From the NCBI RefSeq assembly GCF_002854065.1, contig NZ_CP024151.1: a stretch of 64,000 nucleotides of DNA; one strand, given 5' to 3'. The stretch is from Escherichia coli (GTDB lineage Bacteria; Pseudomonadota; Gammaproteobacteria; Enterobacterales; Enterobacteriaceae). This document shows, piece after piece, positions 1,767-41,318 of the stretch. Under the pieces are notes generated by a model, which ran no database searches, was not told the origin of the DNA, and worked only from the letters and a program-made list of their open reading frames with translations. Each line of letters starts with the position of its first letter. Position 1 is the first letter of the stretch. Both the position numbers and the translations under genes were made by a program.

Positions 1767-3329
1767 ATGCCTCTGATCACGCGGCTTATGCTGCAAAACT
1801 TTAAAAAGTTTCCGGAACTGGACCTGCGCTTCACTCATGACCGTAACATTCTGGTCGGGGACAATGAGTCCGGGAAAAGCACGATTCTGCTGGCCCTTGA
1901 CCTTGTGCTGAGCGACAGCCGGCACCGGGTCGAGGCATTGGGTGTGGAATCGCTCCTGTCCCAGTCAGCAGTCAGGCAGTTTCAGGAAGGTGAGCGCCGC
2001 GCCGATCGGTTACCCGTGCTGACAGCTGATGTTTTCCTGAGTAATGGGGGAGATCCTGACCTGAACGGCAGGCAAAATCTGGCGGGTATCGATGCGGATG
2101 GTCTCAGAATGCGCATTGCACCCATGACGGAGGAATACGGTCAGGATATACATCATGTCCTGCAGCAGGATCCCGATAATTTTCCCTATGAATACTATTC
2201 CGTGCGGTTCAGCACCTTCTCCGGGGGGCATTTTGCCGGCTTCAGACGCTATCTGCGCCATCTGCTGTTAGACAGTGCACGCATCGATAACGAGCACGCC
2301 GCACAGGAATATACGCGCACAGTTTACAGCGTCAATGTGCCGGTAGCCGATCGGTACCGGCTTGAAAACAGTTACCGGCAACAGAAAATGCACTTCTGCA
2401 CCCGGCATCTGTCAGCCATAAACGACACGCTGGATACGTATCAGTTTGGCGTGCGTTCCGGTGCTAAATCAGGTCTTGAGGCGAATCTGGACATTACCGA
2501 GGACGGTATTTCCATTCGTCACCGTGGAAAAGGAAGGCAGTGCTTCATCAAAACAGAGTTTGCACTGCAGCGGCATCAGCAGCAGGGAGAGCTCCACGCA
2601 CTGTTGCTTGAGGAGCCGGAGAATCATCTCAGCCATGTCAGTATGAAGAGGCTGGTTAATCAGCTTGCAACTGAACGGCAGACGCAGGTGTTTATTGCCA
2701 CACACAGCAGCCATATCTCATCCCGCCTCGATCTGCGTAAGGCAATCCTCCTCGGGTCTGCCCGACCGGTACTGATGAATGAACTTTCCGCTGAGACTGC
2801 CGCCTTCTTCATGAAAGCACCGGACAATAATGTGCTGGAATTTGCGCTGGCCAGACGTGTGCTGCTCGTGGAGGGGGATGCTGAGTTTATTCTGATCGAG
2901 GCCTTTTATCGCCGCCTGTATGGCAGGTCGCCGGAGGATGACGGGGTTCACATCATCGCTATCGGCGGAACGAGTTTCCGTCGTTATCTTGAACTGGCCC
3001 GTCTTCTGGAAAATCGCGTCGCGGCCCTTCGTGATAATGACGGCAACTATCAGCAAAACTGCGATGAACGCTATGCTGACGTGCTTTGTTCCCGCTCCCG
3101 GGTATTTGCTGATCGCGATAACACCCGATCCACATTTGAAATCTGCCTGTATCAGGATAACGCTGGTCTGTGTGATGCGCTTTTCCGCGGAACACGCCGG
3201 ACACTCACGGTGCAGGAATACATGCTGGCCAATAAGGCAGAAGCAGCATTCCGGCTGTTACAGCTGCACGCCGAAGAGCTGACAGTACCTGATTATATTC
3301 AGGAGGCACTGGCATGGATAAGAGAGTGA
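1767..3329 (+). CDS. OLD-family ATP-dependent endonuclease (N-terminal ABC-type ATPase plus C-terminal TOPRIM), GajA-like
   Basis: Walker A GDNESGKST near the N-terminus, Walker B-like LLLEEPENHL, H-loop IATHS, then TOPRIM signature LLVEGDAEFIL ... RDNDG. RBS AAGGAATAAAAG precedes the ATG. Confidence 0.8.
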   Translation: MPLITRLMLQNFKKFPELDLRFTHDRNILVGDNESGKSTILLALDLVLSDSRHRVEALGVESLLSQSAVRQFQEGERRADRLPVLTADVFLSNGGDPDLNGRQNLAGIDADGLRMRIAPMTEEYGQDIHHVLQQDPDNFPYEYYSVRFSTFSGGHFAGFRRYLRHLLLDSARIDNEHAAQEYTRTVYSVNVPVADRYRLENSYRQQKMHFCTRHLSAINDTLDTYQFGVRSGAKSGLEANLDITEDGISIRHRGKGRQCFIKTEFALQRHQQQGELHALLLEEPENHLSHVSMKRLVNQLATERQTQVFIATHSSHISSRLDLRKAILLGSARPVLMNELSAETAAFFMKAPDNNVLEFALARRVLLVEGDAEFILIEAFYRRLYGRSPEDDGVHIIAIGGTSFRRYLELARLLENRVAALRDNDGNYQQNCDERYADVLCSRSRVFADRDNTRSTFEICLYQDNAGLCDALFRGTRRTLTVQEYMLANKAEAAFRLLQLHAEELTVPDYIQEALAWIRE

Positions 3330-4336
3330 TATTTGCGGTTGCCGGCTCGGGCAAGACCACGCTGCTGATACAGCGGTTGAGTGAGGACCGGCGGACGCTG
3401 ATCCTGACCTTCACCGTGAATAATGAAGCGCATCTCCGGGCGCAGATTATCAGACGTTTTGGCTTTATCCCGGACGGGATCAGGGTGATGACCTGGTTTG
3501 AGTTTCTGCACGGTTTTTGCTTCAGGCCTTTCCTGCAGGAGCAGCTGGCATCGCGTGGGCTGAGCTTCGACCAGCCCCCACCCAGAATACCGCGCACGAA
3601 TGCCCGGCATTATCAGGATCCCGCCGGACGGCTGTATCACCGGAGGCTCGCACACTTACTCACAGCCCGGGGGCTGCTGCCGGATATCCGTACCCGGCTT
3701 GCCCGTTACTACGATGAACTGCTTATCGATGAAGTCCAGGACTTTGCCGGACATGACTTTAATTTTCTGCTGGAGCTCTGCCGCGCGGAAATCACTGTGC
3801 TCTGTTGCGGCGATTTTTATCAACATACCTTTGATACAAGCCATGACGGCAACGTTAATTCAACGCTGCACGATGACATTACGCGATATGAGGCCCGCTT
3901 CGACGCAGCAGGTTTCACGGTTGACCGGGACACGCTCAACCGGACATGGCGTTGCTCAGCTTCAGTGTGCGAGTTTATCACCGGACAACTGAACATCCGT
4001 ATCGCTGCCCATGGGATACATGCCACCCTGATTGAAACGATCACAGATGCAGAGCGCACAGCCACCCTGCACGCCGATAATACGGTGATTAAGCTCTTCT
4101 ATCGTGAACATCACCGTTACGGCTGCTATTCCATGAACTGGGGCGTCAGTAAAGGGCTCGACCACTTTCAGGATGTCTGCATTGTGATGGGATCTTCCCA
4201 CTGGAAGCTTCTGACCCGTCAGGAACTGGCAGCCCTTCCACCGTCGTCCCGTAACAGGCTGTACGTGGCATGCTCACGGGCGCGCGGCAACATTTATTTT
4301 GTTCCCGAAATTCATCTGCGCCGATTCCGGAACTGA
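3314..4336 (+). CDS. Compact UvrD/Rep-like SF1 helicase (340 aa), GajB-like partner of the OLD nuclease
   Basis: Motif I AVAGSGKTTLL, motif II LLIDEVQDF, motif III GDFYQ, motif VI-like VACSRARG; start overlaps the last 16 nt of the OLD gene and its AGGAGG RBS lies inside the OLD 3' end, indicating translational coupling. Confidence 0.75.
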   Translation: MDKRVIFAVAGSGKTTLLIQRLSEDRRTLILTFTVNNEAHLRAQIIRRFGFIPDGIRVMTWFEFLHGFCFRPFLQEQLASRGLSFDQPPPRIPRTNARHYQDPAGRLYHRRLAHLLTARGLLPDIRTRLARYYDELLIDEVQDFAGHDFNFLLELCRAEITVLCCGDFYQHTFDTSHDGNVNSTLHDDITRYEARFDAAGFTVDRDTLNRTWRCSASVCEFITGQLNIRIAAHGIHATLIETITDAERTATLHADNTVIKLFYREHHRYGCYSMNWGVSKGLDHFQDVCIVMGSSHWKLLTRQELAALPPSSRNRLYVACSRARGNIYFVPEIHLRRFRN

Positions 4337-21200: not shown

Positions 21201-22482
21201 CTCTTCTGCAACCGACAAACTGGTAATTAAAGGCGATGCGTCCGGTAAGACCCGAGTGGCTGTTACGAATGTTGGTGGTTCAGGCGCTAATACGCTGAAT
21301 AGTATTGAAGTTATTCATGTTGATGGTAATGCAGCTAACGCTGAATTTATTCAGGCCGGACGTATAGCGGCCGGCGCTTATGACTACACTCTTGGACGTG
21401 GGCCGGGAAGCAACTATGGAAACTGGTATCTGAGCAGTAGTAAAAACACTCCAGAACCAAGGCCTGATCCTGAACCTACTCCGGAAGGGCATGATAACAA
21501 CCTGCGCCCGGAAGCCAGCTCCTATACCGCGAATATAGCTGCGGCAAACACCATGTTTGTGACCCGCCTTCATGAACGTCTGGGGCAGACGCAATACGTC
21601 GATGCAATTACCGGAGAACCGAAAGCAACCAGTATGTGGATGCGCCATGAAGGAGGACATAACCGCTGGCGCGACGGTTCTGGTCAACTGAAAACTCAAA
21701 GTAATCGTTATGTGATTCAACTGGGTGGTGATATCGCACAATGGGATTGGGGTGGAACTAACCGCTGGCATCTGGGGGTTATGGCTGGTTACGGTAACAA
21801 CCATAGCAGTACAGGTGCAGTACGCACCGGATACCATTCAAAAGGCAGCGTAAATGGTTACAGTACCGGGCTGTATGCTACCTGGTATGCTGATGATGAG
21901 ACTCATAACGGAGCTTATCTGGATACCTGGGCTCAGTACGGCTGGTTCGATAACCATGTGAAAGGTGACGGACTGCCGGGTGAATCCTGGAAATCAAAAG
22001 GACTTACCGCCTCACTGGAAACAGGTTATGCCTGGAAAATCGGGGAATTCAGCAGCAACTATGGCAATCTGAACGAATGGTATGTTCAGCCTCAGGCCCA
22101 GCTTGTCTGGATGGGGGTTAAAGCTGATGAACTCTATGAAAGTAACGGTACTCTTATTGAAAGCACCGGAGACGGTAATGTCCATACCCGTCTGGGCGTG
22201 AAAACCTGGATTAAAAGGCTCAATAAAATGGATGATGGTAAATCACGTGAGTTCAGCCCATTTGTGGAGGTGAACTGGTTGCATAATACCCGTGATTTTG
22301 GGGTTCGTATGAACGGCGAACCGGTGTATCAGGATGGTACCCGTAATATCGGAGAGGTCAAAACTGGTGTGGAAGGTCAAATAAATCCCCATCTGAACCT
22401 GTGGGGGAATGTGAGAGTTCAAGTTGGTGATAAAGGGTATAACGACACCTCAGCCATGCTGGGTGTGAAGTATACATTCTGA
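18295..22482 (+). CDS. Type Va autotransporter, adhesin-like (AIDA/pertactin-type beta-helical passenger, C-terminal beta-barrel)
   Basis: 1395-aa ORF; repetitive G/N/T-rich passenger, proline-rich linker PEPRPDPEPTPE, C-terminal barrel ending in the aromatic motif GVKYTF; no serine-protease GDSGS motif, so not SPATE-like; low-GC, AT-rich upstream region. Confidence 0.8.
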   Translation: MSHKFYYVISFLLSLASSPSIGDEMNCQRYFCFVNGIVEIRTAPEEYQNKPVLVGSQSDGLLIIDNHADIEDGIFSTLHIGNGYNGAVDVINGAALHMDNRSGSAPLIVGAFGNDIAGKLNISGRNSIVSYRDTPSSSGHNESIYVGFGPGATGWINIFNGGVFEVLNSTNIYVGSDTPGGGDGSIVIDGSNSKMTADFSEAYVGLYGNGDISLKNGGQLSASNLYIGGNGRAIVNISGTDSRLIANMITISGSSGAPGIYIADQGILNVDNYINITTANDTKGKLFINSDMPGTIESKGILFGVGKAELIFKHNSDNYAFSSPLISKNTGNGIINAESGETHLTGDNTDYSGLLNILPTASIDISSQKNIGKSVIVNNGVLQITSQDDWTFNNNMTGNGYLNVHTGGHNFAFQNSTNTQEFTGTLALSDTLFDLSDDNTTALTSALVLAGVGSVITAGTGTQVINGFSFDGGAVNFGAVTQGAQQTESQIQVTDNLYINGNGAVRVSTPTDVNGIPQVINSSLSLLEQDDSNATIKLVDASSAVVKGNGGNLQLQDASGQVISSGKQRNIVQLGKNVAKGVYDYRLTSGPHNDGLYIGYALTQLDLLASGVDALVLDAAGTTGNAADMSARITGAGDLAFNSQKGETVSLSNQDNDYTGVTAIRGGNVLMNSNSVLGQTSEIRLATDTRLDMNGHSQTVGKLNGAAGSVLNINGGNLTLTDDGVSAGTLTGGGFLNISGGVLDITGGNHTFAVSTIIAKDATVRMNDVSGLGTGNISNAGTLSLTHASGLLSNNLSGSGTVSLINSDTQISGNNSNYSGLFVVDTSSQLTATGAQNLGIASVSNRGILQLNNTTDWQLINNVTGTGNVRKTGSGSLTVRSNAAWSGQTDIDDGSLILGQSDAPVMLASSLVNIAKNGKLTGFGGVVGNVTNSGSLDLRSAAPGNILTIGGNYTGNNGTLLINTVLDDSSSATDKLVIKGDASGKTRVAVTNVGGSGANTLNSIEVIHVDGNAANAEFIQAGRIAAGAYDYTLGRGPGSNYGNWYLSSSKNTPEPRPDPEPTPEGHDNNLRPEASSYTANIAAANTMFVTRLHERLGQTQYVDAITGEPKATSMWMRHEGGHNRWRDGSGQLKTQSNRYVIQLGGDIAQWDWGGTNRWHLGVMAGYGNNHSSTGAVRTGYHSKGSVNGYSTGLYATWYADDETHNGAYLDTWAQYGWFDNHVKGDGLPGESWKSKGLTASLETGYAWKIGEFSSNYGNLNEWYVQPQAQLVWMGVKADELYESNGTLIESTGDGNVHTRLGVKTWIKRLNKMDDGKSREFSPFVEVNWLHNTRDFGVRMNGEPVYQDGTRNIGEVKTGVEGQINPHLNLWGNVRVQVGDKGYNDTSAMLGVKYTF

Positions 22483-29236: not shown

Positions 29237-29324
29237 TCCGCACTGTTGCCCGCTGTCCCGCAGATCTAAATGGATTTTGCGATAACCGTAAGCGTACAGC
29301 GAGGGCCGTATTGACGGGGATGTG

Positions 29325-30026
29325 TTATTCAGCTGGCAGTGCTATGCGCCACGGAAGCAGTTCGCTGACCCGGTTGACCGGCCAGTCTGCTATGACGCCA
29401 AGCACATGGCGAAGGTAGCTTTCTGGATCCACGTCATTCAGTTTGCACGTCCCGATCAGGCTGTACAGTAGCGCTCCCCGCTCACCACCATGGTCAGAGC
29501 CGAAGAACAGGAAGTTTTTACGACCCAGACTGACCGCCCGCAGGGCATTTTCAGCGATGTTGTTGTCGATTTCCACCCAGCCATCGTTCGCATAGTACGT
29601 CAGTGCCGGCCACTGGTTAAGTGCGTACGCGAACGCCTTCGCCAACTCTGAGTGTCGCGACAGGGTCTTCATCTTTTCACGCAACCAGCTTTCCAGGGAT
29701 TTCAACAGCGGTTTCGTTTTTCGCTGACGTTCAGCAAGCCGCTGCTCTGCCGGCATTCCCCTTATATCCGCCTCTATGGCGTACAACTGACCGATCTGCT
29801 CCAGGGCTGCTTCCGTCAGTGCTGACGGGATGCGGACGTGCACATCGTGGATCTTTCGGCGGGCATGAGCCCAGCAGGCAGCTTCCGTTATCCGACCATT
29901 GCGATACAGCTCGTTGAACCCGGCGTACGCATCCGCTTGCAGCACACCGCTGAAGCAAGCAAGATGAGTCTGCGGATGGATGCCTTTTCTGTCCGGGCTG
30001 TAAGCGAACCACACTGCAGGTGCCAA
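29325..30026 (-). pseudogene. IS66-family transposase (TnpC) C-terminal fragment
   Basis: 233-aa ORF ...[13 protein letters not shown]...[63 protein letters not shown]... is the characteristic IS66 TnpC C-terminal region. Confidence 0.7.
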
Positions 30027-30122
30027 CGCTGACCCGGCATTGCGGTCATCACGAACATGATCTTACCCAGCAATAGTGGACACGCGGCTAAGTGAGTAAA
30101 CTCTCAGTCAGAGGTGACTCAC

Positions 30123-30422
30123 ATGACAAAAACAGTATCAACCAGTAAAAAACCCCGTAAACAGCATTCGCCTGAATTTCGCAGTGAAGCCCTGAAGCTT
30201 GCTGAACGCATCGGTGTTACTGCCGCAGCCCGTGAACTCAGCCTGTATGAATCACAGCTCTACAACTGGCGCAGTAAACAGCAAAATCAGCAGACGTCTT
30301 CTGAACGTGAACTGGAGATGTCTACCGAGATTGCACGTCTCAAACGCCAGCTGGCAGAACGGGATGAAGAGCTGGCTATCCTCCAAAAGGCCGCGACATA
30401 CTTCGCGAAGCGCCTGAAATGA
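30123..30422 (+). CDS. insE: IS3 OrfA (InsE)
   Basis: [54 protein letters not shown]... Confidence 0.85.
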
Positions 30423-31237
30423 AGTATGTCTTTATTGAAAAACATCAGGCTGAGTTCAGCATCAAAGCAATGTGCCGCGTGCTCCGGGTGGCCCGCAGCG
30501 GCTGGTATACGTGGTGTCAGCGGCGGACAAGGATAAGCACGCGTCAGCAGTTCCGCCAACACTGCGACAGCGTTGTCCTCGCGGCTTTTACCCGGTCAAA
30601 ACAGCGTTACGGTGCCCCACGCCTGACGGATGAACTGCGTGCTCAGGGTTACCCCTTTAACGTAAAAACCGTGGCGGCAAGCCTGCGCCGTCAGGGACTG
30701 AGGGCAAAGGCCTCCCGGAAGTTCAGCCCGGTCAGCTACCGCGCACACGGCCTGCCTGTGTCAGAAAATCTGTTGGAGCAGGATTTTTACGCCAGTGGCC
30801 CGAACCAGAAGTGGGCAGGAGACATCACGTACTTACGTACAGATGAAGGCTGGCTGTATCTGGCAGTGGTCATTGACCTGTGGTCACGTGCCGTTATTGG
30901 CTGGTCAATGTCGCCACGCATGACGGCGCAACTGGCCTGCGATGCCCTGCAGATGGCGCTGTGGCGGCGTAAGAGGCCCCGGAACGTTATCGTTCACACG
31001 GACCGTGGAGGCCAGTACTGTTCAGCAGATTATCAGGCGCAACTGAAGCGGCATAATCTGCGTGGAAGTATGAGCGCAAAAGGTTGCTGCTACGATAATG
31101 CCTGCGTGGAAAGCTTCTTTCATTCGCTGAAAGTGGAATGTATCCATGGAGAACACTTTATCAGCCGGGAAATAATGCGGGCAACGGTGTTTAATTATAT
31201 CGAATGTGATTACAATCGGTGGCGGCGGCACAGTTGA
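30419..31237 (+). CDS. insF: IS3 OrfB (InsF); ends at a TGA that may be a premature stop
   Basis: DDE integrase core ...[33 protein letters not shown]...; reading frame stops after ...NRWRRHS, with in-frame coding-like sequence continuing to 31285. Confidence 0.8.
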
Positions 31238-31427
31238 TGTGGCGGCCTCAGTCCGGAACAATTTGAAAACCAGAACCTCGCTTAGGCCTGTGTCCATATT
31301 ACGTGGGTAGGATCATTTCGCCTGCCGGGAGTCACATTTTTCTGCATATCTGACACTTTGGTTCCCACTACTTATTTGGTGGACACCACTTTGTCTAATT
31401 CGTCAGATTCTGGGTAATGACTCCAAC

Positions 31428-31931
31428 TTATTGATAGTGTTTTATGTTCAGATAATGCCCGATGACTTTGTCATGCAGCTCCACCGATTTTGAGAACGAC
31501 AGCGACTTCCGTCCCAGCCGTGCCAGGTGCTGCCTCAGATTCAGGTTATGCCGCTCAATTCGCTGCGTATATCGCTTGCTGATTACGTGCAGCTTTCCCT
31601 TCAGGCGGGATTCATACAGCGGCCAGCCATCCGTCATCCATATCACCACGTCAAAGGGTGACAGCAGGCTCATAAGACGCCCCAGCGTCGCCATAGTGCG
31701 TTCACCGAATACGTGCGCAACAACCGTCTTCCGGAGACTGTCATACGCGTAAAACAGCCAGCGCTGGCGCGATTTAGCCCCGACATAGCCCCACTGTTCG
31801 TCCATTTCCGCGCAGACGATGACGTCACTGCCCGGCTGTATGCGCGAGGTTACCGACTGCGGCCTGAGTTTTTTAAGTGACGTAAAATCGTGTTGAGGCC
31901 AACGCCCATAATGCGGGCTGTTGCCCGGCAT
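31428..31931 (-). CDS. insB: IS1 InsB (expressed as an InsAB' frameshift fusion)
   Basis: ...[71 protein letters not shown]... Confidence 0.9.
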
Positions 31932-32125
31932 CCAACGCCATTCATGGCTATATCAATGATTTTCTGGTGCGTACCGGGTTGAGAAGCGGTGTAAGTGAAC
32001 TGCAGTTGCCATGTTTTACGGCAGTGAGAGCAGAGATAGCGCTGATGTCCGGCGGTGCTTTTGCCGTTACGCACCACCCCGTCAGTAGCTGAACAGGAGG
32101 GACAGCTGATAGAAACAGAAGCCAC
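31850..32125 (-). CDS. insA: IS1 InsA
   Basis: [58 protein letters not shown]... Confidence 0.9.
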
Positions 32126-32383
32126 TGGAGCACCTCAAAAACACCATCATACACTAAATCAGTAAGTTGGCAGCATCACCAGATTCTGACCAGACGGTTC
32201 AGGCTGTACGCTTACGGTTGTCGTGAAGGAGGGGGAAGACCATCTCATCGCTTACTGATGTTCCTGTTACTATATCTATTGAATCCTGGCTATAAGTTCG
32301 CTGTTTAAAGAATTATATGAATAGCACCAATTAATAAGTTAATATTAAAAAGAAGACAGACCTTCTAAATAAACGCATTGAAT

Positions 32384-32641
32384 CTATGTTCCCTTGTGAG
32401 TGTTTTTACGTTTGGCGGGAGGCCTGGAACCTCGGGATTTAACTTTTCTTTTTATATTTTTGATAAAATCATCAATAGAAAACTGAATCGTCTCTGATAA
32501 ATACTGTTGAGCTATATCTGTACTCTGTTTTTCTAAATCAGAAGCTTTCTTTGTTTCAAGAACAGATTTGATTAACTCCTTACGTTGTGTACACCAAATC
32601 TCGTCAGATGAACAGTATTTTTTATTTTCGTGTTTGTTCAT
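32384..32641 (-). CDS. Hypothetical small basic protein (85 aa)
   Basis: ORF immediately downstream of the sulfatase gene on the same strand; Lys-rich; no recognised family. Confidence 0.3.
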   Translation of the reverse strand: MNKHENKKYCSSDEIWCTQRKELIKSVLETKKASDLEKQSTDIAQQYLSETIQFSIDDFIKNIKRKVKSRGSRPPAKRKNTHKGT

Positions 32642-32709
32642 TATTTATTGCTCTAACTGATTTATTTCCCTATATCCAGGGAGTAGATATATCTACTCCC
32701 TGCTTATTA

Positions 32710-34407
32710 TCATTTCACGTTAGTTAAAGATTTTTTTATATTCTCAAATTTGGCTTGGTTGATATCACTGATCGGTTTTTGACTTGACGTGATGAAGTCA
32801 ATCATAACAGCCTTCATATTCTTAACCACATCAGGATGGGATGCAGAGAGATCTTTAGTTTGTTGCAGATCGTTGATATCGTACAGAGCTAGTTTATTCT
32901 CTGCATAGGTGTAAACCAGAGAATAATCGTTGCTTCTTACAGTGTATGCAAACTGGCTTAAGTCTTCTGTATGTGGGTTGTGCGGATAATCATCAGACTC
33001 TTTTCTCACGAATTTATGATATCCGTTCCAGAATGCAGTGTTCTCTTCGTCCCACCAGTGAGAATAAGAGGTAATCCAGGACAGATATTTGTGAGGTTCG
33101 CCAGCTGCAGATTTCTTATCAGCTCCTTTCTGTACATATGGCAATAATGATACACCATCTAGTTTCAGAGAAGCAGGGATCTTGATATCTGCGGCATCTA
33201 AAGCGGTCGGATAGAAGTCCATTGATGAAACCAGTTTGTCATAATCACCCGTTTTCAGCTTGCCATTCCACCACATGAACATAGGTGTATGCATACCACC
33301 CGGATACGGTTGGCCTTTGTAACCAGCCTGCGCACCATTCAGTGGCAGTGGACCATCAATTACAGCACCGTTATCAGAGGTGAACAGAATGATGGTGTTG
33401 TCGTACTGACCTTTTTCCTTAAGTGTATTCAGGATCTTTTTAACCCCCTGGTCAACGGAGTAAATTGACGCATAATAGTTATCAGCAGTCTTGCTACCAG
33501 TGTTGAATTTCTCCTGATAGTTTTTAGGCGCAGGCTGATCGTTAGGCAGGTGTGGTGCACTGTATGCCAGATAAATCATAAATGGCTGTTCCAGTTTGCT
33601 TGCACGGTCAATTACACCAATTGCTTCATCAGTTAATTGATCACTAATGTACCCTTCAGCTTTAATGTTTTCACGGTTACGGAACAATGACGGGGAGTTA
33701 TAAAGTGAAACGCCGGATGCGTGATAGCCCATGAAGTAGTTGAAGCCACGATTCTGAGGTTGCCATTCTTCTGCGGAGAAGGTGGTGAAGTTATCGTGGT
33801 AGTCACGGGTTTGTTTTTCTTCAGGCACACCTACGTTGCTGATTTTTGATAAGTGCCACTTACCGATTGCTGCAGTGTAATAACCATGATTCTGAAGTAA
33901 TTCAGACAGGAATGTTTCTTCCAGAGGGATACCATCCTGTGCATCAGAATTTGAATATACACCGAAGCGAGCAGGAGCTCGCGCCGTCAGGATTGCGGCA
34001 CGTGAAGGGCCAGAGACACCGTGTGCAACATAGCCGTTAGTGAATTTTACACCTTCGTCCATCAGGGCCGCTAATGTTGGAGTGGATTTTTTTGCAGCTT
34101 CAATTGCTTTATCAATACCTATTTTGTATGTATCAACAACATTTCGGTTATCCATCGTTTTAGGGTCAAATGAACTATCATCAAAAGGCAATTGTCCATA
34201 CCCTAAATCATCCATTGTTAAAACAATGATATTTGGCTTACCTTTAGTGCTGTATTCCGTCGGCGTGAAGTCCGCAAAGGCAACATTGGTTTTTGTTGCT
34301 TTGAGCTTAACATCATCTGCTGCATTTGCAGTACTCATCATCAGACCAGATGCTAATATAAGTGATATTGATGAGTTAAGCAGTTTTTTATTTAACTGAT
34401 GTTCCAT
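32710..34407 (-). CDS. Periplasmic sulfatase (alkaline-phosphatase superfamily), Ser-type
   Basis: Signal peptide; metal-binding N-terminal block IIVLTMDDLGYGQ; formylglycine-site motif S-G-P-S-R-AAILTAR with Ser rather than Cys; about 565 aa. Confidence 0.75.
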   Translation of the reverse strand: MEHQLNKKLLNSSISLILASGLMMSTANAADDVKLKATKTNVAFADFTPTEYSTKGKPNIIVLTMDDLGYGQLPFDDSSFDPKTMDNRNVVDTYKIGIDKAIEAAKKSTPTLAALMDEGVKFTNGYVAHGVSGPSRAAILTARAPARFGVYSNSDAQDGIPLEETFLSELLQNHGYYTAAIGKWHLSKISNVGVPEEKQTRDYHDNFTTFSAEEWQPQNRGFNYFMGYHASGVSLYNSPSLFRNRENIKAEGYISDQLTDEAIGVIDRASKLEQPFMIYLAYSAPHLPNDQPAPKNYQEKFNTGSKTADNYYASIYSVDQGVKKILNTLKEKGQYDNTIILFTSDNGAVIDGPLPLNGAQAGYKGQPYPGGMHTPMFMWWNGKLKTGDYDKLVSSMDFYPTALDAADIKIPASLKLDGVSLLPYVQKGADKKSAAGEPHKYLSWITSYSHWWDEENTAFWNGYHKFVRKESDDYPHNPHTEDLSQFAYTVRSNDYSLVYTYAENKLALYDINDLQQTKDLSASHPDVVKNMKAVMIDFITSSQKPISDINQAKFENIKKSLTNVK

Positions 34408-34502
34408 ATGGTATTCCTTCTGAGTTGCATCACGAACATTTATTAATAATAAAAGCCTCTGATATAAATAAAAACTATGTAAATCGTTTAAATGGATACC
34501 TG

Positions 34503-35639
34503 TTAAAACTGATACATCATACCAACAGCAAGTATATTATCGGTTGCAACTCCAGCCTTTTTGGTAAATTCGCTTTCATCAATAAGGTTAATTTTGTAAT
34601 CAATAAGAAGTGACATGTTTTTGTTCAGAAAGTAGTTTGCGCCAACATCAATATACTCAACAAGAGACTGATCGCCATAGTTTACTATTCCACCTTTAAC
34701 ATCCATCCCTTTGGACTGAACGTAAGCCAGTGAAGGACGCAGGCCGAAATCAAACATATACTGAGCCACAACTTCAATATTCCGTGCTTTATCTGCGATG
34801 CCTGCGCTACCAAATGGAGTCATATTTCGGGTTTCAGAGTAGTCAGCTGCCAGATACAGGTCATTATCATTATACTTGACCCCAACACCTGCAAACTCCG
34901 CATGTTTTCCCCCGGCAATCCAGCGAGGCGTAATAACTTCTTTTCCTTCTGAATCTTTCGATGTCATGAAACGTTTACGGCCTTCTTTTTCCTGCAGACT
35001 GGTTCTGTCGGCATTAGTGTAAGCGGCAACGATTCCAAAACCTTCATAGTCATAGCTTACGGAGAAACCATATCCATCACCATTAGCTTCAAGTAAATTA
35101 TCACGGTCATTTTTACCCTGATATTGAGCAGAAAAAGTAAGTCCATCAACAAGCCCGAAGAAATCTGTATTGCGCCAGGTCAGAACTCCGGTTGTTCTGC
35201 CGGTCATATAGTTATCAGAGTAAGTCCAGCTGTCACCACCAAAGTCCGGAAGTACGTCAGTCAGAGCCCCCACATCATAGGCAACACCATAGTTTCGCCC
35301 ATAATCAAGTGAACCGAGTATATTGTGGCGAATACCTGCAAATGCCAGACGATTTTTATCGTTGCGTACTTCACTTTCTGTCTTAAACCCCAGGAACTGG
35401 TATTCCCACTGACCAAAGCCAGTCAGGCTCTCATTAATTTGTGTTTCGCCTTTGAAACCAAGACGTGCAAATGTTCTGTCGCCATCCATAGAACCATCAG
35501 AGATGTAATGACGGGCTTTAACGCGACCATAAAAATCCAGTTTATTACCGTCTTTATTATAGATTTCTGCTGCCTGTGTTGCCTCACACAGCATTAATGC
35601 AGAAACGACAGAGCACACAACCACACTTAATTTTCGCAT
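34503..35639 (-). CDS. Outer-membrane general porin (OmpC/OmpF/PhoE family)
   Basis: Signal peptide then AEIYNKDGNKLDFYGRVKARHY..., and the C-terminal ...AVGMMYQF aromatic terminus typical of 16-strand porins; start set at MRKLSVVV inside the track ORF. Confidence 0.8.
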   Translation of the reverse strand: MRKLSVVVCSVVSALMLCEATQAAEIYNKDGNKLDFYGRVKARHYISDGSMDGDRTFARLGFKGETQINESLTGFGQWEYQFLGFKTESEVRNDKNRLAFAGIRHNILGSLDYGRNYGVAYDVGALTDVLPDFGGDSWTYSDNYMTGRTTGVLTWRNTDFFGLVDGLTFSAQYQGKNDRDNLLEANGDGYGFSVSYDYEGFGIVAAYTNADRTSLQEKEGRKRFMTSKDSEGKEVITPRWIAGGKHAEFAGVGVKYNDNDLYLAADYSETRNMTPFGSAGIADKARNIEVVAQYMFDFGLRPSLAYVQSKGMDVKGGIVNYGDQSLVEYIDVGANYFLNKNMSLLIDYKINLIDESEFTKKAGVATDNILAVGMMYQF

Positions 35640-36147
35640 AAAAAAATCCCCTGTGCACATTTTTAGTATGGTTTTAAAAATTAAACTATGGCGAAAAAAT
35701 TATCACCATGCAAATATGTAACAAAATATTTCTCGGTGATCTATGTTGTTGTTTTTATTTGAGGTTGTATATTTTCTAGTGTATTTGACTTTTCTTTCTT
35801 AAGTGTTATTTCTCGACCTTTATCACAGAACCATCTCCCTGGATATCCCCATAACATTGCATGAAAAGCAAGTTTTACCAATCTTGATTTTCAGTGTTAA
35901 ATAAGATTAATAACTGTAATTCTGCAAAAAAAAGAACACCATATGTAGTATGACTACGTATTCCACTCTGTTCGTTCACGGACTGGCATCGAAGTCTGAG
36001 GTGTACTGGCAATAGCGGATACAGTCATTTGTTCTTTTTTTAAGCATTCATCCGATGATACTTTTCCTGAATGCTACCGGAGTGGTATTCCCCTGCCGTG
36101 ATAGACTGGCCCCCTGAATCTCCAGACAACCAATATCACTTAAATAA

Positions 36148-36558
36148 GTGATAGTCTTAATACTAGTTTTTAGACTAGTCATTGGAGAGCAGATGATTGA
36201 TGTCTTAGGACCGGAGAAACGCAGACGGCGTACTACACAGGAAAAGATCGCTATTGTTCAGCAGAGTTTTGAACCGGGAATGACGGTCTCCCTTGTAGCC
36301 CGGCAACACGGTGTGGCAGCCAGCCAGCTATTTCTCTGGCGCAAGCAATACCAGGAGGGAAGTCTTACTGCTGTGGCCGCAGGAGAACAGGTCGTTCCTG
36401 CCTCTGAACTTGCTGCTGCCATGAAGCAGATTAAAGAACTCCAGCGCCTGCTCGGCAAAAAAACGATGGAAAATGAACTCCTTAAAGAAGCCGTTGAATA
36501 TGGGCGTGCAAAAAAGTGGATAGCGCACGCGCCCTTATTGCCCGGGGATGGGGAGTAA
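36148..36558 (+). CDS. insC: IS2 OrfA (InsC)
   Basis: Same 136-aa protein as at 17452-17862. Confidence 0.9.
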
Positions 36559-37421
36559 GCTTAGTCAGCCGTTGTCTCCGGGTGTCGCGTGCGCAGTTGC
36601 ACGTCATTCTCAGACGAACCGATGACTGGAAAGATGGTCGCCGCAGCCGTCACTCAGATGATATGGATGTACTTCTCCGTATACACCATGTTATCGGAGA
36701 GCTGCCCACGTATGGTTATCGTCGGGTATGGGCGCTGCTTCGCAGACAGGCCGAACTTGATGGTATGCCTGCGATCAATGCCAAACGTGTTTACCGGATC
36801 ATGTGCCAGAATGCGCTGTTGCTTGAGCGAAAAACCGCTGTACCGCCATCGAAGCGGGCACATACTGGCAAAGTGGCCGTGAAAGAAAGCAATCAACGAT
36901 GGTGCTCTGACGGGTTCGAGTTCCGCTGTGATAACGGAGAAAAACTGCGAGTCACGTTCGCGCTGGACTGCTGTGACCGTGAGGCACTGTACTGGGCGGT
37001 CACTACGGGCGGCTTCGACAGTGAAACAGTACAGGACGTCATGCTGGGAGCGGTTGAACGCCGCTTCGGCAACGAGCTTCCGGCGTCTCCAGTAGAGTGG
37101 CTGACGGATAATGGTTCATGCTACCGGGCTAATGAAACACGGCAGTTTGCCCGGATGTTGGGGCTTGAACCGAAGAACACGGCGGTGCGGAGTCCGGAGA
37201 GTAACGGCATAGCAGAGAGCTTCGTGAAAACGATAAAGCGTGACTACATCAGTGTCATGCCTAAACCAGACGGGTTAACGGCAGCAAAGAACCTTGCAGA
37301 GGCGTTCGAGCATTATAACGAATGGCATCCGCATAGTGCACTGGGTTATCGCTCGCCACGGGAATATCTACGGCAGCAGGCCAGTAATGGGTTAAGTGAT
37401 AACAGGTGTCTGGAAATATAG
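36516..37421 (+). CDS. insD: IS2 OrfB (InsD)
   Basis: 301-aa DDE transposase ORF overlapping orfA in the -1 frame. Confidence 0.9.
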
Positions 37422-37832
37422 GGGCAAATCCAGTATCCGGATGTGCTGCCAGCCTTCTCAGTTAACCGATGTTTTCCGGGCTTTTTGCCATACTGAGGAC
37501 TGATAACGTATTCCTGGTCGTAAAACCCGTCAATATGCGCCGGGGCATCGACAAAACTGACACAGTACGTCCGGAAAGAACTTAACGCTGCATGGCACGA
37601 CAATGCTGCCTTTGTCTTTACCAACAAGGCTCGTTCCCGCATAAAAGTTCTACGCCGGGATAAACATGGCGTATGGCTGCGTCAGGCCTTCACTACTTCA
37701 CACCGGAAGTCTTCCAGCCTGACACGAATATACCGTCCGGGCTCTTTCGCAGGTGCAAACAGTTTTTCACATTCGGCGAATGTCATTTCTGAATCCTGGT
37801 AACGCAACCACTGAACCGGCATATTACCGGGT

Positions 37833-38438
37833 TTGATTATTGTCGCAGTTATTTTATATCGTTTCCCCATATCGCCTCTCATCCTGACAACAAAATTACC
37901 GGCTGAGCCAGGGGGCCCTCACCCCCCTATAAGGGGTCCGCTTGGAAACATATCGAAGAAAACGGCCGGCGGGAGGAATACGGCGCGCTACCTGGGTCGT
38001 TATCTGAAGAAGCCGCCGATAGCAGCCTCCCGGCTGGCACATTACAACGGAGGGGCGAGCCTGAGCCTCCGTTACCTGGACCACAAAATGGGAGAAACGG
38101 CGACGGAAACGCTGACACAGCGAGAGCTGGTCGCGAGGCTGAAACAGCACATCCCGGAGAAGTTTTTTAAGATGGTGAGGTACTTCGGGTTCCTTGCCAA
38201 CCGGGTGTGTGGAGAGAAGCTGCCGCAGGTGTACCGTGCTCTGGGGATGGATAAACCGGAAGCAGTGGCGAAAGTGTGCTATGCACAAATGATGAAACAG
38301 TTCCTGAGTCGTGATCCGTTCGAATGCGTGCTGTGTGGCAACCGGATGGTATACCGCCGGTCCCTTGCGGGGCTGAATGTATCAGGGCTGAAGAAAAACG
38401 CGCGGGATATCAGTCTGCTGAGGTATATGCTGGCCTGA
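37833..38438 (+). pseudogene. IS91-family (rolling-circle Y2) transposase C-terminal fragment
   Basis: ...FKMVRYFGFLANRVCGEKLPQVYRALG...FECVLCGNRMVYRR... resembles the C-terminal cysteine-containing part of IS91-family transposases; the N-terminal catalytic region is absent. Family assignment is from recall and is uncertain. Confidence 0.5.
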
Positions 38439-40174: not shown

Positions 40175-41032
40175 TCAGGGGGAAGCTGTGGCCAGCCGGC
40201 TGTAATTACGGTTACGTGACAGAATCATGCGCTCTTTCACACGACGCTCCACTTCGCGTTTTACCGCCTCACGATTGGCAGTGAAGCGCCCTTCCGAGAT
40301 TTCACGCGTCAGCTGCCGTTTCACCAGGGTGACGATATCCTGACGTTCCCTGTTCGCATCACGACGCGCACGGGCACGCTTTATTCCACGGGACTTAAGC
40401 TCTGTCTGGTAACTGCGGAAACGCTCACGCACAAAACGCCAGGCTTTCGCTATCAGTTCATCCATACCCAGGGTATCCAGTCCCTGCTTTTTGCGCTGTC
40501 TGTTTTCCCATTCAACACGACTGCGGCGCGCAGCAACTACTGCATCCTCAGACACATCAAGGGCGGCAAATAGCGCCGGTGTGAACGTGATATCGGTCGG
40601 AATGTAGCACCCGATAAGCGGATCATATTCCGTCTGGTAGGTAATCAGTCCCAGCTCTGCAAGGAACGTCAAGGCTCGGGTGGCCCGGGTGATGGAGAGT
40701 TTTCCGGCAGCAGACTCCGTCGCCAGTCCGCACTCAATGGCCAGCGTAGTGATGGAGCACTGGACGCGGTTGGCCAGCGGGTCATAGTGAAAACACAGCC
40801 CCTGCAGCAGCGCATCAATAGCCCGGCGACGCAGTACCGGTGGCATGCGCCGACGCAGTCCCTTCGAACGGGCATGTGCCACATGAATGGCGAAATCAAA
40901 ACGGGAGGTGAAGCCCACCGCCTTTTCCATCAGTTTTTCGCAGAACTTCAGCGTTCCGGCACCTTCACGGGGTGTGAACACCGGATTCGGGTTTTTAACC
41001 TGTGAATAGTATTTTTGAAGGAGATCAGCCAT
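40175..41032 (-). CDS. repA1: RepFIIA replication initiator RepA1
   Basis: 285-aa protein [111 protein letters not shown]...; the track ORF begins 13 codons upstream at an alternative start. Confidence 0.9.
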
Positions 41033-41318
41033 GTCCCCCTCCAACACTATTCCCCCTCCTACGGGCGGCAACTAGCTCGTCTGGGCCGACACGTAAAGTT
41101 TCGAACATATCTGGTCTGAACCAGATGGTTCCTCCATCAAAAGCGATGAGATGAAGATCATTATCAAGAGTTTTGAGGGCTCTCCAAACACGAGTGTATG
41201 AACCTCCACTACAAACTGAAAGCTCTTTAACAGATAAGTTAACTTTGTTCGTATCAGGGATGTAGTGTGCGCACATTACTTGTACGAGGGAAACATAAAA
41301 ACTAACCATCGACGCGCT
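41033..41318 (-). CDS. Hypothetical winged-helix-like small protein encoded inside the repA1 leader insertion; stop overlaps the repA1 start
   Basis: [94 protein letters not shown]; its stop codon lies at 41025-41027 inside the ATGGCTGA junction with repA1, so the coding sequence extends to 41025 and the 41033 lower bound marks the insert edge; the true start within the 41025-41519 track ORF is uncertain. Confidence 0.35.

Follow-up and report, generated by a model that had tools for sequence, protein, structure and literature searches.

A Ser-type sulfatase without a linked maturase, encoded with a general porin in an island-derived cassette on an Escherichia coli IncF plasmid

How could a sulfatase whose relatives are all encoded beside their own maturation enzyme function from a plasmid that carries no such enzyme next to it? 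This question is raised by a cassette of three open reading frames (ORFs) found by ORF calling on the minus strand at 32384-35660 of a 64,000-nt window of E. coli contig NZ_CP024151.1 (the window is the whole stretch of DNA that was analyzed, and all coordinates are window positions). The order of transcription is a porin gene, a gene for a Ser-type sulfatase and an 85-amino-acid (85-aa) ORF. A first-pass annotation of the window had placed a sulfatase, a porin and a small basic ORF here, and all three are present. It also had the porin follow the sulfatase on the same strand; the shared strand stands, but the porin is the upstream gene. The host replicon is a multi-replicon plasmid of incompatibility group F (IncF), with a Rep3 initiator (10013-10990) and an IncFII RepA (40175-41071), and the large ORFs from 44887 onward can be read as tra genes, given their size and a TraD annotated on a near-identical plasmid. 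The cassette holds a new, oddly organized member of the known but uncharacterized YdeN family of sulfatases, together with an accessory general porin. On balance, and with modest confidence, we favor a reading in which an island-derived three-gene cassette was captured once by an IncF plasmid and encodes a general porin and a sulfatase that would be matured by a host anaerobic sulfatase-maturating enzyme (anSME). The cassette contains the following features.

34503-35639, minus strand: general diffusion porin gene; the RefSeq start at 35639 gives 378 aa, and a start at the alternative ATG upstream (35660) would give 385 aa.
34408-34502, minus strand: porin-sulfatase spacer of 95 bp, with a GAAGGAA ribosome-binding site ahead of the sulfatase ATG.
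32710-34407, minus strand: Ser-type S1 sulfatase of 565 aa, a YdeN paralogue predicted to be periplasmic (Pfam Sulfatase, Sec-type signal peptide).
34000-34014, minus strand: codons of the Ser-type formylglycine motif S132-G-P-S-R136.
32677-32702, no strand assigned: perfect palindrome or hairpin with an 11-bp stem and a 4-nt loop, 8 nt past the sulfatase stop codon.
32384-32641, minus strand: basic 85-aa orphan ORF (WP_001032733), in the usual anSME slot of the YdeN family.
32347-32366, minus strand: weak hairpin (AGAAG/CUUCU) with a U-run, resembling a terminator, about 20 nt past the small-ORF stop.

The cassette enzyme is predicted to be a true S1 sulfatase of the Ser type with a complete catalytic set. 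It matches the Pfam Sulfatase profile (PF00884, E=1.9e-65) over positions 1-301 of 301, and 84 sulfatase structures in the PDB match it at E <= 1e-5. The signal peptide is of the Sec type (...STANA, with cleavage before ADD). The motif S132-G-P-S-R136, followed by AAILTAR, fits (C/S)-x-(P/A)-x-R plus xxxLTG/A-R and is invariant across the 14 sequences of our family alignment (the cassette sulfatase and 13 YdeN-family relatives). D66, D67, K183, H185, H229, D345, N346 and K364 are likewise all present and invariant, and the metal-binding and catalytic motifs line up with their equivalents in PDB 9HH2. The first-pass annotation had called a Ser-type enzyme from S-G-P-S-R and had named loss of catalytic residues in an alignment as evidence against its call; the motif occupies residues 132-136 and every catalytic residue is kept. 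Identity as a phosphoethanolamine transferase is ruled out. The segment around the motif, GYVAHGVSGPSRAAILTARAPARFG, differs from YdeN at two residues, and both variant residues recur in YdeN-family relatives with an anSME of their own.

The relationship to E. coli YdeN is close. The two proteins are 77-78% identical and colinear over their full length, and they have in common the S-G-P-S-R motif, a Sec signal peptide, low GC and a roughly 30-residue insert, specific to the family, that follows DDLGYGQ. Identity to the 13 family members is 64-77%, and the insert between DDLGYGQ and STPTL is kept. In a neighbor-joining tree, the Enterobacterales YdeN clade has the cassette sulfatase at its base, on a long branch, and the orthologues from Yersinia (80%) and Leminorella (85%) are nearer to E. 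coli YdeN than the cassette sulfatase is. A search for a donor found no sulfatase of 79-99% identity in a collection of 5.8 billion proteins or in GTDB representative genomes. One locus (L057) considered as a closer relative proved to be the E. coli ydeO-ydeN region.

What sets the cassette apart from the rest of its family is the missing maturase. A tblastn search with three YdeM-type anSMEs found no anSME in the window (best E=0.32), in agreement with the first-pass annotation, which had seen no anSME/AtsB-like gene there, and no remnant of ydeM downstream of the sulfatase gene. In contrast, an anSME (Radical_SAM plus SPASM) lies directly downstream and on the same strand in all 29 species-representative YdeN-family loci, which span Escherichia, Cedecea, Citrobacter, Budvicia, Mixta, Yersinia, Grimontia, Photobacterium, Anaerobiospirillum, Pasteurellaceae and Fusobacterium. 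In the E. coli core locus, Leminorella and Yersinia, the Radical_SAM/SPASM gene begins about 50 bp past the sulfatase gene, and two mobile loci (a Salmonella element resembling an integrative and conjugative element, or ICE, and an Enterobacterales element) also have an anSME directly downstream. Among the loci examined, the cassette is the sole YdeN-family locus without an adjoining anSME. That every other locus has one indicates that the family normally needs a dedicated maturase.

The other two cassette genes are equally foreign to the family. Neither a porin nor the 85-aa ORF occurs within 5 kb of any of the 29 loci. Among 79 flanking ORFs from 23 loci, no family is shared by more than four members, and no glycosidase, transporter or porin recurs beside the YdeN-YdeM pair. 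Thus, YdeN-YdeM appears to be a self-contained two-gene unit. Unlike YdeN, which sits at the core ydeO-ydeN-ydeM locus, the cassette enzyme is found on islands and plasmids with a porin gene upstream and an orphan ORF downstream, and this ORF fills the slot where the anSME gene usually lies. A similar contrast can be drawn from descriptions of the AtsA/AtsB system of Klebsiella. In work ascribed to Szameit (1999) and Marquordt (2003), AtsA is said to be a periplasmic Ser-type S1 sulfatase whose serine is oxidized by AtsB, a cytoplasmic radical-SAM anSME, before Sec export. The AtsB gene adjoins that of AtsA, whereas the cassette has no linked anSME.

If the cassette sulfatase is active, which enzyme could convert its serine to formylglycine? 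The likeliest candidate is the host YdeM, acting in trans. ydeM is nearly universal in the species (5334 of 5426 complete E. coli genomes, or 98%, a tally over the species as a whole). The cassette is found in E. coli only, across PLSDB, the E. coli genomes and the protein collection. Together with the nearly unchanged formylglycine segment, these observations point to maturation in trans by YdeM, with AslB as a fallback. The first-pass annotation had proposed dependence on a chromosomal maturase, and with an anSME at all other family loci examined and ydeM so widespread, this is still the most economical reading. We postulate that the pre-sulfatase would be synthesized in the cytoplasm, that a host radical-SAM anSME (YdeM, or failing that AslB) would convert Ser132 to formylglycine, and that the matured protein would then be exported by Sec. 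In the periplasm it could hydrolyze small sulfate esters entering through general porins, including the co-encoded one. The porin may do no more than make the outer membrane more permeable or diversify the cell surface, without conferring substrate specificity.

Maturation in trans would make sulfatase activity conditional on ydeM expression and low oxygen. Sulfatase maturation in E. coli has been unclear since 2007, and aslB and ydeM are only "putative" maturase genes. A conserved and constrained Ser-type sulfatase without its own maturase is thus a convenient natural test of YdeM and AslB: if the enzyme is active, one or the other must act on Ser-type substrates in vivo.

Where did the cassette come from? 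Its GC content is 40%, compared with 50% across the window, in keeping with the low-GC module described in the first-pass annotation, and GC content at third codon positions (GC3) is 0.36 for the porin gene, 0.39 for the sulfatase gene and 0.30 for the small ORF. The same annotation had the module bounded by the insertion sequences (IS) IS1 and IS2. These do flank it, but they are not its original borders, as the surrounding features indicate.

32180-36101: cassette segment of 3.9 kb, with its genes on the minus strand, between IS1 and IS2.
31413-32179, minus strand: IS1, with InsA and InsB ORFs and a 9-bp target duplication.
36102-37432, plus strand: IS2 of 1331 bp, with InsC and InsD ORFs, delimited by BLAST against two chromosomal loci (L002 and L003).
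29288-30058 and 31316-31412, no strand assigned: remnant of ISEc8 (IS66 family) in two pieces, by BLAST against chromosomal copies.
30059-31315, no strand assigned: IS3 copy that splits the ISEc8 remnant, by BLAST against chromosomal copies.
37433-37910, minus strand: DUF1187 gene region (ORF 37682-37882), where the island fragment resumes past IS2.

Chromosomal sequence is continuous across the IS1 site, and 9 bp of it are repeated on both sides in the plasmid. At the IS2 site, 351 bp of the chromosomal copies are missing. ISEc8 abuts the cassette at the same place in the closest chromosomal islands. IS1 and IS2, like IS3, are evidently later insertions, or secondary ones, in an ISEc8-flanked island fragment that spans about 29288-37910 of the plasmid. 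The identical 8.8-kb IS mosaic is present in nine PLSDB plasmids at 99.5-100% identity, and an exact mosaic common to nine plasmids argues for one capture event followed by spread among plasmids.

The distribution of the cassette points to the chromosome as its home. It is present in 132 of 5426 complete E. coli genomes, at 139 places, 124 of them chromosomal and 15 on plasmids. A survey of plasmids, proposed as a check in the first-pass annotation, found the cassette on 13 of 72,556 PLSDB records; any YdeN-family sulfatase is found on 32. The description of the module as an unusual trait for an IncF plasmid therefore holds for its rarity but not for its being a plasmid trait. On the chromosome, the cassette adjoins hlyCABD and a hemagglutinin/Ail cluster in strain GE3 and is inserted near glc-yghJ in strain KSC9. 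In an O91:H21 strain (FWSEC0008, locus L064), the order is ato, iha, btuB, the cassette (ORF, sulfatase, porin), IS66 debris, DUF1187, an AraC regulator and an S6 autotransporter. The copies fall into two allele groups, at 99.6-100% and about 98.9% identity. The window allele, in the first group, matches island copies near hlyCABD or glc-yghJ, outside the Locus of Adhesion and Autoaggregation (LAA). The allele of about 98.9% identity is that of LAA module II, from Shiga toxin-producing E. coli (STEC) that lack the locus of enterocyte effacement (LEE), where btuB is likewise on one side of the cassette and IS66 debris on the other, with DUF1187, the AraC regulator and the S6 autotransporter beyond the debris. 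The window differs from this module in having only the cassette and its ISEc8/DUF1187 flanks, on an IncF plasmid and outside the iha-btuB/lesP context. These comparisons trace the cassette to pathogenicity islands of the E. coli chromosome, namely LAA module II and islands related to it.

A sulfatase and a porin are listed by annotation in the LAA and pheV islands of STEC (PMC6920203, PMC6174562). We found no functional study of the cassette genes in the literature, only such annotation lists. The porin and sulfatase of the LAA island are thus an unstudied pair that might contribute to gut colonization. The cassette, now on resistance-associated IncF plasmids as well as in STEC virulence islands, is otherwise ordinary cargo of the accessory genome.

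Could the porin be a dedicated partner of the sulfatase, as the first-pass annotation had it? The protein matches Pfam Porin_1 (PF00267, E=7e-124), with a signal peptide MRKLSVVVCSVVSALMLCEATQA followed by AEIYNKDGN and a C-terminus of ...MMYQF. It resembles OmpC, OmpF, PhoE and the prophage porins of the Lc/NmpC type in its 16-strand Porin_1 fold, eyelet residues, PDFGG motif and C-terminal Phe. In contrast to OmpC, OmpF and PhoE themselves, it falls below all three NCBIfam equivalog cut-offs (its PhoE score is 419.5 versus a cut-off of 599). Its best PDB match is PhoE (1pho, E=1.4e-110), and in the alignment to 1pho, PhoE Lys125 is matched by a Gly and loop L5 is about 25 residues longer. 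With Lys125 replaced and the PhoE cut-off not reached, PhoE-like anion selectivity was rejected. The equivalents of OmpF R42, R82, R132 and D113 are kept in the eyelet, E117 is replaced by D, and PDFGG is found in L3. Copies at least 99% identical occur in E. coli only. After these, identity drops to 62-66%, in porins encoded in tail-gene regions of lambdoid prophages, and no porin of 66-99% identity was found in the protein collection or in GTDB representative genomes. The protein is best described as a predicted general channel of the OmpC/OmpF type, with nothing that marks substrate specificity. A dedicated role is not borne out by the ordinary OmpF/OmpC eyelet, the prophage relatives and the lack of a porin near the other YdeN-family genes.

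Co-transcription of the cassette is plausible: the genes share a strand, the 95-bp spacer between porin and sulfatase is free of terminators, and the GC3 values of the two genes are similarly low. No terminator-like site was found on the minus strand of this spacer, and its predicted RNA fold is unremarkable (z = -1.07). The hairpin past the sulfatase stop codon (32677-32702) is very stable (-20.2 kcal/mol, z = -4.5, with none of 200 shuffles equally stable). It has no U-run on the coding (minus) strand and is therefore not a canonical operon terminator; a T-rich tail is present on the plus strand only, and the hairpin looks like a terminator of an antisense transcript or an element that stabilizes RNA. 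The weak hairpin past the small ORF (32347-32366) was read from the sequence, was partly recovered in the RNA fold and is below the threshold of the scanning tool.

All three genes appear to have been under constraint. We compared the window copy with seven other copies. Between the two allele groups, the sulfatase gene has seven synonymous and two non-synonymous differences (pN/pS 0.08), the porin gene eight and four (pN/pS 0.14), and the small ORF two to three and zero to one (pN/pS 0-0.12, with only synonymous differences in most comparisons). That the differences are mostly synonymous indicates constraint since the present arrangement arose.

Several observations weigh against the reading that we favor. 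E. coli reportedly does not mature Ser-type sulfatases under standard conditions: these enzymes require an anSME, and the formylglycine-generating enzyme (FGE) and E. coli's own unidentified system take cysteine only (PMC6189696, PMC8379841). The enzyme could therefore remain without activity, at least when cells are cultured aerobically in the laboratory. The count of ydeM is, as noted, species-wide. We know of no demonstration that YdeM matures any sulfatase. No sigma-70-like site was found on the minus strand in the spacers or ahead of the porin gene, and the total of such sites is below that expected from shuffled sequence. Two of the seven other copies are frameshifted, in the sulfatase gene in the O91:H21 strain and in the porin gene in strain 48 (L068), and selection to keep the genes is thus not universal. 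In addition, all copies of the cassette are at least 98.5% identical and hence descend from one recent ancestor, so that the constant adjacency of porin and sulfatase is a single event and not independent evidence of a joint function.

Some of these observations suit an alternative that survives better than the others, although we consider it doubtful. The porin and sulfatase genes could be independent neighbors in an island mosaic, with a maturase-less sulfatase that is largely inactive and hitch-hiking and a porin that serves surface variation or permeability. The frameshifted copies and the reported failure of E. coli to mature Ser-type sulfatases would be expected of such cargo. The porin is also found at no other YdeN-family locus, its closest relatives are themselves prophage cargo, and IS debris fills the surroundings. 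However, both genes have kept a low pN/pS (0.08-0.14) since the alleles split, the catalytic residues have all been retained, and five of the seven other copies are free of frameshifts in all three genes. The shared strand and the short terminator-free spacer also speak against unrelated neighbors, and we continue to prefer a host-matured sulfatase encoded with a general porin.

A more specific proposal, made in the first-pass annotation, is that the pair is dedicated to uptake and desulfation of host sulfated glycans such as mucin or heparan sulfate, with the porin as a substrate-specific channel. We regard this as unlikely. The YdeN family does occur in gut- and host-associated taxa (Enterobacterales, Anaerobiospirillum, Pasteurellaceae and Fusobacterium), the cassette is found in virulence-associated islands, and a link between ydeMN and mucin use has been speculated upon (PMC10878103). 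Against it, the porin has a general OmpF/OmpC eyelet, with Gly in place of PhoE Lys125, and such porins exclude polymers. In addition, the solved structures closest to the sulfatase are S1_19 enzymes, endo- and exo-acting galactose-4-sulfate sulfatases of Pseudoalteromonas that cut kappa- and iota-carrageenan oligosaccharides (9HH2, 6BIA, 6B0J and 6PSM; PMC6923384), and not enzymes acting on GlcNAc-6-sulfate or heparan sulfates. The best match, 9HH2 (E=1e-56), is 41% identical over 315 core residues; 6BIA, 6B0J and 6PSM come next, with E values from 1e-56 to 1e-43 across the four. The bit score is 196 for S1_19 versus 134 for the next subfamily, and S1_16, GALNS-like enzymes and GlcNAc-6-sulfatases are clearly lower. 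S1_19 enzymes share their catalytic machinery with the cassette sulfatase, but they are Cys-type, marine and encoded in carrageenan utilization loci, whereas the cassette enzyme is Ser-type, enteric and stand-alone. Modeled with AlphaFold from the 14-sequence alignment, the sulfatase reached a mean predicted local distance difference test (pLDDT) of 49.5, too low for comparing pockets or searching by fold. Genes for glycosidases and sugar transporters are neither conserved around the family nor present next to the cassette. Neither the nearest structures nor the gene neighborhood supports mucin or heparan as the substrate.

The 85-aa ORF is the most obscure part of the cassette. It has no Pfam or NCBIfam match, and among 1.84 billion representative proteins the only homologues are the protein itself and truncated copies; other matches are low-complexity hits to long repeat proteins. 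A single-sequence AlphaFold2 model predicts a helix at residues 14-69 (pLDDT 74) followed by a basic tail. There is no signal peptide, and the only cysteines are Cys10 and Cys17. It is conceivable, at low probability, that the cassette encodes a "maturase-parasitic" sulfatase that shed its own anSME and uses the YdeM of its recipient, with the 85-aa protein as a new accessory factor that, for example, couples expression or export to the availability of the host maturase. Such dependence would explain the restriction of the cassette to E. coli although conjugative IncF plasmids carry it. In that event, YdeM activity on Ser-type sulfatases in E. coli would have a natural reporter in the cassette. 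A reading in which the 85-aa protein replaces or regulates maturation or expression, or in which the enzyme works with an unmodified serine, is very improbable: the ORF does occupy the anSME slot, is conserved with synonymous-only changes in most comparisons and lacks homologues, but a protein predicted as one helix plus a basic tail, with two cysteines in all, cannot be a radical-SAM enzyme. In addition, the numbers of substitutions are very small, and a very stable hairpin separates the ORF from the sulfatase gene.

The YdeN family is represented on other mobile DNA as well. Pairs of the YdeN-YdeM type are found on ICE- or phage-like elements, in Salmonella enterica (contig RTTS01000015, L013) and in Enterobacterales (L014/L015), with TraI, integrase and DnaB neighbors. 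A related sulfatase is encoded on large Proteus and Providencia plasmids (PLSDB matches H96-H98). Judging by these sulfatase-anSME pairs on mobile elements and by the Proteus and Providencia plasmids, the family itself is mobile. The native ydeN region is also present on a few E. coli plasmids (PLSDB matches H89-H95). Some E. coli genomes have up to three copies of ydeM, and eight ydeM places are on plasmids.

In the O91:H21 island, a gene for an AraC-family regulator (19549-20286 of L064) lies about 2 kb upstream of the porin gene and is divergent from it, with IS66 debris and DUF1187 in between; it is absent from the plasmid fragment. Native ydeN has been reported as an AraC target (PMC10878103).

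The plasmid carries other accessory genes at a distance from the cassette. At 18295-22482 (plus strand) is a gene for a 1395-aa autotransporter with Autotransporter beta-domain, AC_1 and Pertactin matches and no Peptidase_S6 match. The related plasmid p2974-D has instead an S6-family autotransporter (a serine protease autotransporter of Enterobacteriaceae, or SPATE) near the cassette. A 499-aa alpha/beta-hydrolase with a TAP-like C-terminal domain is encoded at 12772-14271 (minus strand). Lastly, an anti-phage Gabija pair is encoded at 1767-4336 (plus strand), with a GajA of 520 aa (an OLD-like TOPRIM/AAA ATPase, PADLOC E=1.5e-101) and a GajB of 340 aa (a UvrD-like helicase, PADLOC E=1.2e-47) that is short for a GajB.

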